DNA of 64,000 nucleotides, from assembly GCA_951406725.2 (NCBI GenBank), contig OX597818.1:23002001-23066000 (forward strand). Reading direction: 5' to 3'. Each line of letters starts with the position of its first letter. Within the stretch, counting starts at the first letter, position 1. The notes beneath the pieces are model-generated. The model was given only the letters and a program-made list of their open reading frames with translations, ran no database searches and was not told the origin of the DNA. Origin of the DNA: Octopus vulgaris (taxonomy: Eukaryota). Made by a program: the position numbers and the translations under genes. Shown piece by piece: positions 2,892-58,070 of this stretch.

Positions 2892-3161
2892 AATAATGAT
2901 GATGATGATGATAATTTCAACTTTTAGCACAAGGCAAGAAATTTCGAGAGAAGGGGCAACTCAATTAGAGCGACACCCAATGTTCAACAAACACTTATTT
3001 TATCGACCCCGAAAGGATGAAAGACAAAGTCGACCTCGGCGGAATTTGAGCTCGGAATGTAAACACGGACGAAATGCCGCTCAGCATTTTGCCTCACATG
3101 CTTAATGATTCTGCTAACTCACTGCCTTAATAATAATAATGTTGATAATAATAATAATAAC

Positions 3162-3245
<84 letters not shown>

Positions 3246-3246
<1 letters not shown>

Positions 3247-4865
3247 TGCTAAATAGAACTGGATGCGGATATAAATGTTACGGCAAAACGATCAGCCACC
3301 TTTTATATATGGATGACCTAAAACTATACGCTGCAAATGACAAACAGCTGGAAACACTATTAAAGACAGTTCATGGATTTACCAAAGAAATAGATATGAA
3401 ATTTGGATTAGAAAAATGCGCCAAAGTAACCATGAAAAGAGGAAAACTAGTTAAGAGTAACAACATCACACTAGATAAAACCAATGAAATAAAAGAATTA
3501 GACCAAAGCCAAACTTACAAATACTTAGGAATCCATGAACTAGATAAGACACAACACACACAAATGAAAGAGAAAATAAAAAAAGAATATTATAGACGAG
3601 TTAGATCAATACTAAAAACAGAGCTCAATGCTAAAAACAAGATAATAGGTATCAACACTTTAGCTGTCCCAGTTATAAGTTACAGCTACAATTTCCTTAA
3701 CTGGACACGAAATGAACTGTCCAAAATAGATAGGAAAACAAGAAAAATACTGACAGGATCTAGGATGCATCACCCAAAATCTGACATAGAAAGACTATAT
3801 ATACAACGTATAGAAGGTGGTAGAGGCCTTATACAGCTGGAAAACTACTATAAAATAACCACCATAGGACTGCAAAAATACCTACTTCAGAAGGAAGGAA
3901 AACTGATCCAGATAGCAGCAAAACACGAGCAAAACAAAAAACTGTTCTCAGTATTTAAGGAAGCTGACAAATACAAACAAGAAATCATACCACCTAATAA
4001 ACACAAAGAAGAAGAAGATGATGAAGAAACAACAAAAGCTATAAAACAAATGAAATCCAAACTAAAAATAGAACAGCAACGAGCCATGATAAAACGATGG
4101 CAAGAAAAGCCCCTTCATGGTAAATACTGCACTAAACTAAACGCAAAAGAAATAGACAAAGAAAAATCCCAGCAATGGTTGAGAAGCTCAGGACTCAAAG
4201 CAGAAACAGAGGGATTTTTAATTGCAGCACAAGACCAAAGCCTCCCCACCAGAAATTACCAAAAACATGTAATGAAAAGAAATATTACAAGTAACTGCAG
4301 AATATGTGGAGATGGACAAGAAACAATAAATCATATTATCTCTAGCTGCCCAGTCCTGGCTAAGAAGGAATATATTCACAGACATGACAGAGTTGGAACC
4401 TACATACATTGGAAGCTATGCCAACATTATAGAATAACAACAGAAAAAAGATGGTATAGGCACACACCAGAAAAGGTCACAGAAAACGAGAAAGCAACCA
4501 TACTCTGGGATATGCCGATACACACAGATAGAGAAATTAAGGCCAACAGACCAGATATAGTTGTCAGAGATCATGAAGAAAAAAAATGCTTTCTAATTGA
4601 TGTATCAATACCGGCAGATGACAACGTGTCTCTAAAAGAAATGGAGAAACTCTCAAAATACAAAGACCTGGAAATAGAGGTAACTAGAATGTGGAACCTG
4701 AAAACAGAAACAATTCCTATCATAGTAGGTGCATTAGGCATGATAAAAAAATATTCAGACAAATACATAACAAAAACACCAGGACTTACAAACACATATA
4801 ACATACAGAAAATTGCACTACTAGGCACTGCATACATCCTACGCAGAACACTTTCCATACAATAA
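3246..4865 (+). CDS. C-terminal part of RT-RLE protein (the poly-N N-terminus in the ORF track is microsatellite artefact)
   Basis: About 540 codons without stops from MLNRTG to TLSIQ*. Confidence 0.88.
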
Positions 4866-16740: not shown

Positions 16741-17099
16741 CAGAAAATATGCACTTAGGATACATATTTTGTGTAAGGAAGGGCAAAGTGACTTGATGCA
16801 GAAGGTTGATAGGTTGGCAAGGAGACTGTGGGGGGTGGGCGGGTAGAGGGACATGGACGGGTGGGGATGAGGGTGAGGTACCAGAGCAGGGTGGCGGTGG
16901 ATTTCAGTTTTCTTTTTTGAGATTTTATGGTATACTTGTGGGTAAAAGACAATGAATGGGGGGTGGGGTGAGGATAGTTAAGTGCAGGAGGAGAAAGAAG
17001 CGCAGTCAAATAATTTGAACACATACACATACGTACGCACACATATACATGTACATACGTACACAGATACATACGTGCAGATATATATAGAAACATAAG

Positions 17100-17665
17100 C
17101 ACACGCCGGGCGAAATGCTTAGCGGTATTTTGTCAGCCGTTACGTTGTGAGTTCAAATTCCGCCGAGGTCGACTTTGCCTTTCATCCTTTCGGGGTCGAT
17201 AAATTAAGTACCAGTTACGCACTGGGGTCGATGTAATCGACTTAATACCTATGTCTGTCCTTGTTTGTCCGCTCTGTGTTTAGCCCCTTGTGGGTAATAA
17301 AGAAATAGGTATTTTGTCAGCCGTTACGTTGTGAGTTCAAATTCCGCCGAGGTCGACTTTACCTTTCATCCTTTCGGGGTCGATAAATTAAGTACCAGTT
17401 AAGCACTAGGGTCGATATAATCGACTTAATACCTATGTCTGTCCATGTTTGTCTCCTCTATGTTTAGCCCCTTGTGGATAATAAAGAAATAGGTATTTTG
17501 TCAGCCGTTACGTTCTGAGTTCAAATTCCGCCGAGGTCGACTTTGCCTTTCATCCTTTCGGGGTCGATTAAATAAGTACCAGTTACACACTGGAGTCGAT
17601 GTAGTCGACTTAAACAACTTGTTTGTCACCTCTATGTTTAGCCCCCTGTGGGCAATAAAGAAATA
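17100..17665 (+). mobile_element. Tandem trimer of SINE family B
   Basis: Three ~183-bp units joined as ...AAAGAAATA|GGTATTTTGTC... Confidence 0.88.
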
Positions 17666-17722
17666 AATTAATGGAACTGTAGAAAAATGTAAAACATTCC
17701 AGCATGTAATATGTACATCTGT

Positions 17723-17837
<115 letters not shown>

Positions 17838-17983
17838 TGTCTGTCTGCCTGTCTGTCTGCCTGCCTGTCTGTCTGCCTATCTGCCTGCCTGTCTGCCTGC
17901 CTGTCTGCCTGTCTGTCTGTCTGTCTGTTTACCTATCTATCTGATGATCAGTCTGTCTCTACCTGTTTGTCTATCTAATATAT

Positions 17984-18017
<34 letters not shown>

Positions 18018-18225
18018 ATATGTTTGTATACATATTTACATACACTCATAGAAAAACACACAGGTATATATAAGTATGCTACTGTGTGTGTATGTGCGCA
18101 CGCACGCGGTTGCTTATTTCTGTTTGCATGTGTGTGTAAATCCCTCTATTTAGCTCTCATATCCTCTCTGATGAAGGGATATCCCTGACCAAGAAATTTC
18201 TTGGTCATTTATAAAGAGAAAGGTA

Positions 18226-18265
18226 GTCTTACAGCTGTTTCAGGGATATCCCTTCATCAGAGAGG
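18226..18265 (-). ncRNA. Minimal type I hammerhead ribozyme motif (Penelope-like terminal repeat)
   Basis: Minus strand ucu-CUGAUGA-agggauaucccu-GAAA-cagcug-UA-aga: intact core, palindromic helix III. Confidence 0.8.
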
Positions 18266-18380
18266 ATATGAGAGTTAAATAGAGGGATATACATACACAT
18301 GCAAACAGAAATAAGCAACCGCGTGCGCACGCACATACACACACAGTGGCATACATATATACCTGTGTGTTTTTCTATGC

Positions 18381-18424
<44 letters not shown>

Positions 18425-18458
18425 AGAAGAAAATGGATTCAAAACCTCTTTCTTTGAA

Positions 18459-18534
<76 letters not shown>

Positions 18535-18630
18535 CGGGAAGCTTTATGAAAATAAACAAAAGACGAAGGCAGGTGGAAAACAAACGAACAATTGTATTAG
18601 TATGGCGCTCAGGAAATATAAATAAAACAA

Positions 18631-18670
18631 GTCTTTAACGTTTCGAGCCTACGCTCTTCAACAGAAAGAT
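18631..18670 (-). ncRNA. Minimal hammerhead-like motif, CUGUUGA variant
   Basis: ucuuu-CUGUUGA-a-gagc-guag-gcuc-GAAA-cg-UU-aaaga; 5-bp helix I. Confidence 0.6.
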
Positions 18671-18738
18671 ACACAGAGAGAGAAAAACACAGAAAGAAGG
18701 AGAAAAAAATGCGTGCAGTAGCTAACGAATCAACATGG

Positions 18739-18772
<34 letters not shown>

Positions 18773-18950
18773 TTATATATATATATATAGTAAATTTAGA
18801 TTCAGTAGGGTATATAATACCACTTACTAAAATAGAGCCAACGCTCCAAAAACCACCATAGACTCACCATAAAAATATACACGTGCAATGCAATGGACAT
18901 ATGAGAAATAGGCTTACCTTTGCCTTGAATACATCAGTAAGTAATGTCTA

Positions 18951-19012
18951 TTTCAATATCAATTGATTTCACACTTTGCATGACAAACATGCTCAGCGAT
19001 TTTCAGCTGAAA
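18951..19012 (-). ncRNA. Hammerhead motif with G8>A core change
   Basis: uuucag-CUGAAAA-helix II-GAAA-ucaauuga-UA-uugaaa; 6-bp helix I, palindromic helix III. Confidence 0.6.
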
Positions 19013-19184
19013 ATAACATTTTAACATCTATTTCTAAAATATTCACTACATTAGCCCGTGTACGTTTATATACAGTAAGGTACTATATAGCCTGCAGAAT
19101 CAAGATTTACCTTATATTGTGACTGTAACGGTGTGAACTTGCTAACCCCCTTATTATTACCTTATTAATACTATTAATAACGGA

Positions 19185-19270
<86 letters not shown>

Positions 19271-19641
19271 ATATTAATAATAATTAAAAAAGGGTAAAAT
19301 TTATTAATTAAATTAATTAATTAATTAATTAATCAATAATTTTACCAAGTAGATCGGTACGTTAAAATAACCTTTATAAGTACATTATCCACATAATTAT
19401 AATTAGGGTTCAGCTAATTGCTTCATCACATACCGAATTTAGAAATAGGAGTTGAAATTCCTTTTCTGCTACTGTAAGAATTTCCATACAAACACACACA
19501 CACTCACATACGTAATTACAAAATTTTATGTAGATGCATACACCTTTCAAATTCAGAATCACACATGCAGATATAAGCATGCGCACACACTCACACGCAC
19601 ATACTCACACGCACACACTCACACGCACACACTCACACGCA

Positions 19642-19688
<47 letters not shown>

Positions 19689-19910
19689 GCATACATATAT
19701 ACCTGTGTATTTTTCTATGCGTGCATATATAATGTGTGTATAAGTATATATATATATATGTGTGTGTATGCGTGTTTAAGTATATATATATGTGTATGTG
19801 TATATAAGTGTATATGTGCGTTTGTGTGTATAAGTATATATTCAGTGTGTTTGTGTGTGTGCATGCCTGTGTATGCGCGCGCGTGTATGTCTATTATGTG
19901 TGTGTGGCGC

Positions 19911-19980
<70 letters not shown>

Positions 19981-20823
19981 ACGCGTGCGCACGTGCGTGT
20001 CTTGTGCGGATATACGGCAAGTTTTTCAGCTCTTTTCTTGCAGTCATTTCTTCCTCTTCGGAAATTTTGCCAGATTCTTACTATTCTCTGGACAGACTAC
20101 CAAATTCTCCGTACCTTTTACCACTGCTGTCCAACTTTTACCATTGTGTTTTCACATTTCTTTCTTTTACAGAATCCAAACTTTTTCCCCATTTTCAAAT
20201 TTTAGTTTAAACTTTGTCTCTTTGTTAAAAAATGCAACGTTTTCCCACCCCAGATTACTTTCGTTTTACACTTAAACATATTAATAGCACCTTCAACCTT
20301 GCTCTTTCCATCTCGTGAACTTCACCAAAGCCTTTATTCAATCACGTTCGCGCTCACATCATGCCACACTTTCACACCAATCAATGAACGATTATACACT
20401 CCAGCCTCACTTCCTCTAACCAATGCATCTATACTTCCACACTTCCACACCTCTAAACACATACATGCACCTCACTAACACACGCATACATCACATCTTA
20501 TACTTCCTTTCAAGGACAAATAAACTCTTATACTTGCATCTAGTACTCGCCCCTTCTTCCTTCCTTGGCTCTGTCCTAGAACAGCATTTGCATCTGGTTT
20601 CCAACATTTGATTTTACCCCCCACCCCCACCATCACCACCACCATATTGTCACTCTTTCTCACTTTCTCTACGATTCTCTTTCTATTGATGAAGGACTAA
20701 CGGCCGAAATGCTGGGATATTTTTCTCTGTGATTAAAGCGGCAAACATACACACACAGACTCATGCATACACAACCACACACAGACATAATCTAACATTT
20801 ACTAATCTTTAATTATGCGCCGG

Positions 20824-20972
<149 letters not shown>

Positions 20973-21908
20973 TATATTTCTTTATCTCAGTTTTATCAGT
21001 TACAGTTTTCAAACTGTAATAACAACTCAAAAATAATAAATAATAATTCTCAAAATGCAGAAAGTAGAAGACACTAAAAAACAAAAATCTGAAGAAAAAC
21101 TAAACAAAAATTTTTTAAAAAGTACAAATGACAACACAAAAAAGACAAATCCTTTAAGAACCGAAAAGCCAATAAACAAAACATAAACCGAACTCAAAGG
21201 AAAACCTTCGATAACTATTTAAAAATATTAAAAGTAAGAAAAAGAAAAAAGTTAATCAAAATATCTGATACAATATAAAAATAAAAAAAGTAAACTCATG
21301 AACCGAATGACTCCTAAAAAAATAATAAAACATTGGTATCCTCGACTCTCTAAAACCATCACCATAGCCTTCAAGCAAATAAAAGAAATCAAAGCAAATA
21401 TTCTACAAATCTAATCAAAAATTGCATTCTTTGAATAATTTATACGTATAGATTATAGATTTAATCCAAATCTCGCTATCGTGAGAATTCGGTTGTTGGG
21501 CTCGAGATATATTCTATCTTCTAAAACTTAATAAAGATATTTATTGTGTCTCCAGGTCGTATGTTCAATCTGCTGCCTCAACATCTTTATATATTTTATT
21601 TCATTAATTTATTTTTGTTTTGTTTATTTTGTTTTCTTTCATGTTCTTATCATCAAAAAGGCATCATATTTTATTCATATCATTATTTTATCAAATTTGC
21701 TTTTTCACATGCATATTTGTATATACATATGTATGCATACATGTAAGCATGCACATATGCATATATGCGTGTATGTATGTATGTATGTACATACATGCAC
21801 ACACATACACACACACATTTATAGATAGATAGACATTTGTGTATACACAATATGTTAATGATAGGAAGTCGAATATCTGTGCATGCATGTATGATGATGT
21901 GTGAGTGC

Positions 21909-35240: not shown

Positions 35241-35771
35241 TATGTATGTATGTATGTATGTATACAGAAAACAAAGTTATTTTATTCTACACGGGTAGAA
35301 ATGTAGAAAAAATAGAATTTGAAAATGCACTGAGAATAGTTAAAATATTTTTATTAAGATATTTGAAGGTTTCAGTTTACTCTGATTTTCAAAAAGTTAA
35401 AAAGAAAGACGTAGTTTATGTCGCAGCTGTCTTGCTTCTGAATATTGTTAGAAGTTTGCCCTGTTTTTATAGGGAGTTCATGGCTCAAATTAGTATATGT
35501 TTTCAATAGGATTTGAGTGGCAGAGGATAGCCATATGACTGGTCTTAGGAACAGGACAAACTTCAAACACTAGTCAGAAGCAAGACAACTGGGACGTAAG
35601 CCACGTTTTTCTATTTGAACTTTTTGATAATCAGTGTAAACTGTGAAACCGGTTAAAGCTTCAAATATTTTAACTATTCTCAGTGCATTTTCAACATCTA
35701 TTTTTCCTATAATGTGTGTGTATTTTGTTTATTTTATATTCATATTTACTATAACTTAACATTTGTTCTTT

Positions 35772-57398: not shown

Positions 57399-58070
57399 AT
57401 ATATTTCGTTTTTGGATTTGGTTTGCAAGATTCTTTATACGAGTTCGTGTGTTGAAGCATATTCTGTTGTGTCTGAGGAGAGTCATTTTCTTTTTGTGCC
57501 TTATAATGTAACACACTCACCGGTAAAATTTCCACTTATTTCTTATTTTTATTTTCCTAAAATTTTCATTGCATCTTGCAACCTTTTCAATAGTCTTGAC
57601 TCTGTCCGTTATTTACACTGCGTTCCTTTTTGTTTGTTTGTGCACATATGTGTGGGTTAGTGTATGTCTGTGTGGTTATGCATGTATGTATGCATGTGTG
57701 TGTATGCATATGTATATATATATGTATGTATTCTGCATATTCATGTGCTTGCATGTCCGTGTTTGTATATTTTCTATGTATGTGTGTATGTAAGCATGTG
57801 TTTGTATATGTATGCACCTGTCTCCTTGTGTGTTTTGCAACTATGTACCATGTTTGTATGAATGTGCATCTCTATATGTGTGGAATAAAGTGTGTGTGTG
57901 TGTATATGGTCATGTGTTTCAGTCTCCATTTGCGTATGTGTGCTTGTCTGTTCTTATAACTTATGTACCTATCTGACTGGCCTCTTTCAGTTTCTGTCTT
58001 CCAGATCCACTCACAGGGCTTTAGTCAGCCTGAGACTATGGCTTAATTGTTTCCTTTCTATCTTCTTCAG

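Follow-up and report, generated by a model that had tools for sequence, protein, structure and literature searches.

Truncated ends of four unrelated repeat families, likely inserted separately, in a stack of hammerhead motifs of Octopus vulgaris

The stack of hammerhead motifs described here, in a 64,000-nucleotide stretch of Octopus vulgaris DNA (the window), is best read as the truncated ends of four unrelated families, likely inserted separately by Penelope-type retrotransposition, and likely as an inert pile-up and not a functional cassette (probability of about 0.88). The locus is likely a commonplace site of nested insertions by elements of known types: for family 2 the stack is known solo pLTR debris of Penelope-like elements, and the other families work alike.

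All four motif strings are confirmed on the minus strand, where an earlier sequence-only reading had placed them. They correspond to four distinct dispersed repeat families, each of which has left a truncated copy within a patch of TA/CA microsatellite. The family 1 remnant with hammerhead 1 (18193-18291, minus strand) precedes a (CA)n(TA)n microsatellite (18460-18533). This adjoins, at its 3' end, the copy of family 2, which is a 5'-truncated pLTR of a Neptune-type Penelope-like element and holds hammerhead 2 (18533-18740, minus strand). The boundary between families 2 and 3 is a (TA)n run (18741-18789). The family 3 remnant with hammerhead 3 (18783-19066, minus strand) lies head-to-head with an inverted 3'-terminal piece of the same family (19079-19191, plus strand), missed by the sequence-only reading. 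A further (TA)n run (19189-19274) marks the boundary with family 4, a 5'-truncated 3' part (19275-19487, minus strand) that holds the look-alike motif 4. Element boundaries coincide with microsatellites, and the claim that solo truncated ends of several families lie in a microsatellite patch is borne out. The four main pieces are on one strand, for which chance is 1 in 8.

The setting is rich in microsatellites: 335 tandem-repeat rows were found in the window, and (TA)6+ runs occur once per 1.2 kb in unselected DNA. Inspection by eye of the window's open reading frames revealed no host exon. It must be noted that the window contains other features: (i) 2.7 tandem copies of a 184-nt unit (17124-17613), which also matches many fetched loci and which we take to be an octopus SINE; (ii) a 600-aa open frame (3063-4865, plus strand), presumably from a non-LTR retrotransposon, whose reverse transcriptase (RT) and restriction-like endonuclease end it resembles; (iii) a head-to-head hammerhead-like pair (35599-35679, plus strand; 35334-35412, minus strand) with a U3-A8 core variant and an ACCGGU palindrome; (iv) a U3-A8 minimal hammerhead of a further family (57560-57590, minus strand), also seen in locus L200 and near several anchors.

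The genome searched comprises 2.8 Gb in 227 contigs. First-look candidates numbered 1546, 158, 368 and 1557 for families 1, 2, 3 and 4, respectively; the best 40 of each were scored and 30 loci per family were fetched, the resulting 120 loci being biased to the copies closest to those of the window. Among the best 40 scored per family, the nearest copies of families 1, 3 and 4 are 89-95% identical to the window copies. For family 2, two other loci (best 40 of 158 scored) match the window copy at 100% over 141 nt, an identity from which this copy is judged young. With its neighbours differing by 5-11% from their nearest copies, this points to separate insertion times.

A hammerhead search, proposed in the sequence-only reading, recovers motif 1 and the Penelope class with descriptors, but no hammerhead with Rfam. 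Motif 1 is the sole perfect-core match of a strict descriptor in the 64 kb (0 in 10/10 shuffles). A Penelope-tuned descriptor gives 19 matches in 600 kb (60 unselected 10-kb stretches) vs. 0-4 per shuffle (5 shuffles); this motif class is therefore real in the genome. Up to E=10, the Rfam scan of 17000-21000 gives 86 matches, none of them a hammerhead; they are mainly miRNA models on microsatellites and on a fold-back described below. Single-sequence folding z-scores of all four motifs are unremarkable (+0.30 to −1.44) and give no support either way.

Motif 1 has an intact CUGAUGA core (18260-18254), a 4-bp helix II, a palindromic helix III and a GUA triplet, with a predicted cut after 18230. 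Core, NUH site, helices I and II and palindromic helix III are those of a Penelope minimal type I hammerhead. Among relatives the core is CUGAUGA in 23/28 and GAAA in 27/28; helix I has 3 bp in the window copy and its 4-bp form is found in 22/28. The common form of the family, with a helix II 9 nt longer, has 203 exact pattern matches. Upstream of the hammerhead, the family 1 sequence (L143, 1020-2060, and related loci) is non-coding for more than 1 kb and includes microsatellites; no Penelope ORF was found within the ~1.3 kb walked. A Penelope RT fragment 0.55 kb downstream (L024/L124) is not taken as the parent, since other sequence intervenes.

Motif 1 is enclosed by a 181-nt inverted repeat of 86% identity (18008-18188 / 18240-18420) that had escaped the sequence-only reading. 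The left arm (plus strand) comprises local flank and the 5' portion of the remnant of family 1. It ends in a truncated half-hammerhead (18168-18186, plus strand), i.e., CUGAUGA and helix II without GAAA or cleavage site. The inversion junction is a 22-nt perfect palindrome (18186-18207), where the usual 3' tail of family 1 is missing. The right arm (minus strand) contains a locus-specific flank (18295-18388) and (TA)n (18384-18420). This flank precedes element 1, and a third copy of 61 nt (92%) is found at 19668-19728 on the minus strand. With a length of 61-94 nt, the flank has 4 genome matches, 3 of them here (one ahead of element 1, another in the inverted arm and the third ahead of element 4); the inversion is therefore a local fold-back. 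The earlier statement that the motifs share no flanking homology holds among the four families, but not for this flank. The fold-back deleted the normal 3' tail of family 1 and left the plus-strand half-hammerhead. In folding calculations the pairing probability of the motif 1 helices is at most 0.01 before the inverted arm is transcribed, reaches a maximum of 0.09 at one intermediate transcript length, and is 0.00 after the arm is made, when a hairpin of −165 kcal/mol forms. The fold-back is thus predicted to bury hammerhead 1.

Family 2 is the one family with a linked parent element. In two of the three extended loci (L121, L122) its pLTRs are direct repeats ~4.45 kb apart around an ORF with RT and GIY-YIG, the arrangement of a Penelope-like element. 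The RT matches Pfam RVT_1 (E=1.5e-7); the GIY-YIG match is weak (E=0.039, under the Pfam cut-off), and CCHH and GIY-YIG-type motifs are visible. Family 2 is, from its sequence, a Neptune-type Penelope-like element, the clade (Craig et al. 2021, PMC8557442) being assigned from motifs read by eye; the element copies examined are frameshifted. L121 and L122 are near full-length, with U at core position 6 in both pLTRs; in the upstream pLTR of L122 the motif carries two additional changes. In L123 (4006-5863, plus strand) a second Neptune-type family, which is AT-rich, was observed, with a frameshifted RT-GIY-YIG ORF and an inverted endonuclease piece upstream.

Motif 2 has the core CUGUUGA (18664-18658), i.e., U at position 6 (18661). 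Its remaining structure consists of a bulged A after A9, a 4-bp helix II, an ACGU palindrome, a GUU triplet and a 5-bp helix I, with a predicted cut after 18637. The base bulged after A9, the G10.1-C11.1 pair, the palindromic helix III, the NUH site and helix I are all as in Penelope hammerheads; the A at core position 6 is not, and U6 is found in 26/29 relatives. Exact genome matches number 15,730 with U6 vs. 602 with A, C or G. Position 7 is free, all four bases occurring among the first 100 matches listed. The helix II string is unchanged in 25/29 relatives and GAAA is present in 29/29. Sister families (L207, L213, L234) share the helix II stem and swap a pair in helix I; their loop has 3 nt, and core position 6 is A or U. 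An alternative register (UUGAAGA core) was rejected: it leaves a helix II of 1 bp, against 4 bp in the chosen register, for which a double change in helix II occurs in 1/29 copies and position 7 varies freely.

The A6U core is the only departure of motif 2 from the published hammerheads compared; all alignment rows of PMC4209133 that were compared have A6. A full-text literature search on A6C and A6U hammerheads gave no paper naming A6U, and nothing on these motifs was found, by title or start of abstract, in the literature on octopus hammerhead ribozymes. The nearest known case is the natural A6C variant of phage Bcep176 (PMC3088659, PMC7151607), which like motif 2 has a pyrimidine at core position 6 and an otherwise intact core. 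This variant is slow in Mg2+ and prefers Mn2+ (PMC3088659, PMC7151607). In motif 2, by contrast with the phage, the base is U and is fixed in a high-copy animal retroelement. That motif 2 is a natural A6U hammerhead still cleaving, probably as a dimer or with the element protein, and fixed in over 15,000 copies and several subfamilies of a Neptune-type element that was mobile recently, is a tentative reading to which we give less than even odds.

Motif 3 has the core CUGAAAA (19006-19000), in which G8 is replaced by A (19001), a 6-bp helix I and a 10-nt palindromic helix III, with a predicted cut after 18957. Among relatives the core is CUGAAGA in 19/29 and GAAA in 26/29, and the CUGAAAA of the window is found in 2/29. 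Neither a C3-G8 nor a U3-A8 pair is formed in the window copy: C3 faces A8, i.e., G8A without C3U. In a lizard Penelope ribozyme, G8C and C3G mutations abolished cleavage (PMC11167929). The family alignment (31 rows) has 94% of cells paired and 14 double-change cells, with compensatory changes in all three core-proximal pairs of helix II, and G-C to C-G in 8/31 rows. The covariation score is reached by 0/500 shuffles, a control inflated by the relatedness of the copies; the pair-count measures are not exceptional (53/500 and 40/500 shuffles), with the same inflation. Core and covarying helices of the family as a whole are those of Penelope hammerheads. Judged from these sequences, family 3 is a real hammerhead family, of which the window copy is mutated and has lost C3-G8. 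Copies are found head-to-tail with a unit of 412-426 nt and loop back onto their own 3' end; no ORF was found in them. No RNA run was listed for this sequence, and contigs of four sequencing runs over 18790-19185 are short family-level pieces, none crossing 19066/19079; both results are silent on expression.

On the contrary, motif 4 (GUGAUGA, 19429-19423; GAAC, 19411-19408; minus strand) is not a hammerhead. C3, A6, the A15.1-U16.1 pair, the NUH site and the three-way junction, all expected of a hammerhead, do not occur together in it. Relatives have GUGGUGA in 21/29, GUGAUGA in 5/29, C3 in 0/29 and GAAC in 23/29. Folded as a consensus, the motif gives an unbranched hairpin, and 0/26 pairs show a double change; with no double changes and no three-way junction, a second, relic hammerhead is rejected. 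The actual hammerhead of family 4 lies 163-181 nt upstream of motif 4, beyond the 5' truncation, and is absent from the window copy. It has a CUGAAGA core, a GAGA/UCUC helix II, an ACGCGU palindrome and a covarying helix I, and was seen in 11 distinct copies, the core being intact in 10. The family forms a head-to-tail unit of 545-546 nt that loops back onto its own 3' end, and no ORF was found in it. A Penelope ORF adjoining family 4 (L098/L123) is a neighbour across a (TA)n junction and is not taken as the parent.

The sequence-only reading had called three hammerheads and a degenerate fourth. Motifs 1 to 3 stand as Penelope-type and motif 4 falls: the core is upheld in relatives of families 1 to 3 (with U6 in motif 2) and is lacking in those of motif 4. 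The three helix III palindromes had been read correctly and are fully self-complementary. The proposed Penelope-like origin agrees with the minimal type I form of motifs 1 to 3, with palindromic helix III, but is tied to a Penelope ORF for motif 2 only. It follows from this comparison that one decayed copy by itself does not suffice to call a hammerhead; recourse to the family rescued motif 3 (real but mutated) and removed motif 4.

A homology search of the unselected 600 kb yields 21 hammerhead sites, 17 of them from the motif 2 superfamily, which extrapolates to roughly 98,000 sites in the genome. Under uniform scatter at this density (21 sites per 600 kb), the probability of two more sites within 0.8 kb of a given site is ~4e-4, and ~9 same-strand triplets within 0.8 kb are expected, fewer if three different families are required; three different families together are rarer still, since 17/21 sites belong to one superfamily. 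The stack is denser than uniform scatter predicts, which speaks against a plain pile-up. For 135 anchored loci (after removal of the window's own and of four that overlap or are duplicates, with singleton library entries counted as families), a hammerhead of another family lies within ~1.5 kb at 33, and two or more other families at 3. Neighbouring hammerheads of other families are in the same orientation in 17 cases and opposite in 22 (p=0.52), i.e., without strand bias. Local enrichment is ~2-fold (19 in 339 kb vs. 17 in 600 kb, p=0.03). Copies with a TA/CA run after the 3' anchor number 16/25 in family 1 (8% of random positions), 23/26 in family 2 (8%), 22/28 in family 3 (31%) and 20/27 in family 4 (14%). 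Because of these neighbour, orientation, enrichment and TA/CA-end counts, the stack is considered uncommon but of a recurring kind, without strand signal. In locus L064, same-strand hammerheads of three different families were observed within 1.6 kb (oriented positions 1239, 1530 and 2824).

The minimal hammerheads of Penelope elements (PMC4209133) share with those described here: (i) the type I order, short helix I and palindromic helix III; (ii) an extra nucleotide after A9 and GUU or GUA triplets; (iii) the occurrence mostly as solo remnants, with opposite-strand pairs 100-700 bp apart. Unlike the hammerheads presented in PMC4209133, those of families 1 and 3 do not have a G10.1-C11.1 pair adjoining G12. 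As far as their sequences indicate, the unit structure of families 3 and 4 resembles that of non-LTR retrozymes (Cervera and de la Pena 2020, PMC7229834; Li et al. 2026, 10.64898/2026.07.22.740005): both families appear as short, non-coding, head-to-tail units with a type I hammerhead and, likewise, no ORF found. Two same-strand hammerheads of one family were found in 0/28 family 3 and 0/27 family 4 loci (sampled 3-kb loci). The stack itself differs from non-LTR retrozymes in being heterologous, with four unrelated families once each on the minus strand, and not a tandem array.

Microsatellite bias and inverted 5'-truncated copies are known for Penelope-like elements (PMC8557442). At this locus, the GIY-YIG endonuclease would nick (TA)n, and reverse transcription would begin close to the RNA's 3' end and stop early. 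Because it lies 100-250 nt from the RNA 3' end, the hammerhead would be the part most often left behind. The (TA)n on the flank after each insertion would serve as target for the next. Mobilisation of families 1, 3 and 4 by Penelope proteins is inferred, since no ORF is linked to them. Activity of the hammerheads would be confined to the tandem transcripts of their parents, where they would act as homodimers or together with the element protein, and those of the locus would be passengers: motif 3 decayed, motif 1 folded back, and the family 4 ribozyme never arrived. In PMC4209133, no cleavage was seen for single minimal hammerheads, and the majority are found as solo remnants.

The four pieces might instead have been carried together as a composite mobile unit, e.g., by template switching or transduction in a single insertion. 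The shared strand, the 61-nt locus-specific flank duplicated on both sides of elements 2-4, and the local rearrangement evident from the fold-back are compatible with such a unit. However, the same arrangement is absent from all the other fetched loci (120 loci, the window's own apart), and the perfect match of the family 2 copy to two loci is at odds with neighbours 5-11% away from their nearest copies. A single insertion is thus improbable.

Even less probable is the serial self-cleavage cassette proposed in the sequence-only reading, in which a minus-strand transcript would be cut successively, releasing RNAs of 320 nt and 407 nt that circularise like retrozymes. Three hammerhead folds do lie on one strand within 0.8 kb, and these fragments fit the 150-450 nt range of retrozymes (PMC7229834). 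One Penelope hammerhead is protein-assisted (PMC11167929). Nevertheless, with motif 4 removed there are three hammerheads rather than four, motif 3 is broken by G8A without C3U (2/29 relatives), and motif 1, by prediction, is sequestered in its hairpin and has no hammerhead fold even ahead of transcription of the arm. In a dimeric hammerhead, helix I and helix III must both pair across partners. No like partner is present on the same strand inside the stack, and helix I has 0-1 bp in 5/6 cross-family pairings; the motif 2 core could pair weakly on the motif 1 site (3 bp in helix I and 3 bp in helix III, with G-U pairs). In Schistosoma, a single minimal hammerhead gave no cleavage and dimers little (PMC4209133). 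The lack of strand bias among neighbouring hammerheads and an arrangement unique to this locus among the 120 fetched also speak against the cassette, which is not borne out. That AT-rich repeat DNA gave rise to the motifs by mere chance, as is true of motif 4 and as the flat z-scores and the Rfam result would allow, is similarly very improbable, given the match of families 1-3 to the published Penelope consensus, the compensatory helix II changes of family 3 (score reached by 0/500 shuffles, with relatedness inflating) and the helix I pair swap in the sister families of motif 2.

The stack itself matters little: it is the expected product of abundant hammerhead-bearing retroelement ends that share a microsatellite target. 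The best lead of the analysis is the A6U core, with its predicted cut site. If motif 2 cleaves, a core base treated as invariant would be dispensable in animal retroelements, and descriptors requiring CUGANGA would miss the commonest hammerhead of this genome. Cleavage was found unnecessary for Penelope insertion in vitro (PMC11167929), and the A6U core offers a direct test of whether a Penelope hammerhead must cleave for the element to spread. An active U6 core would widen the hammerhead consensus, while a dead one would mean a highly successful element spreading with a disabled ribozyme.
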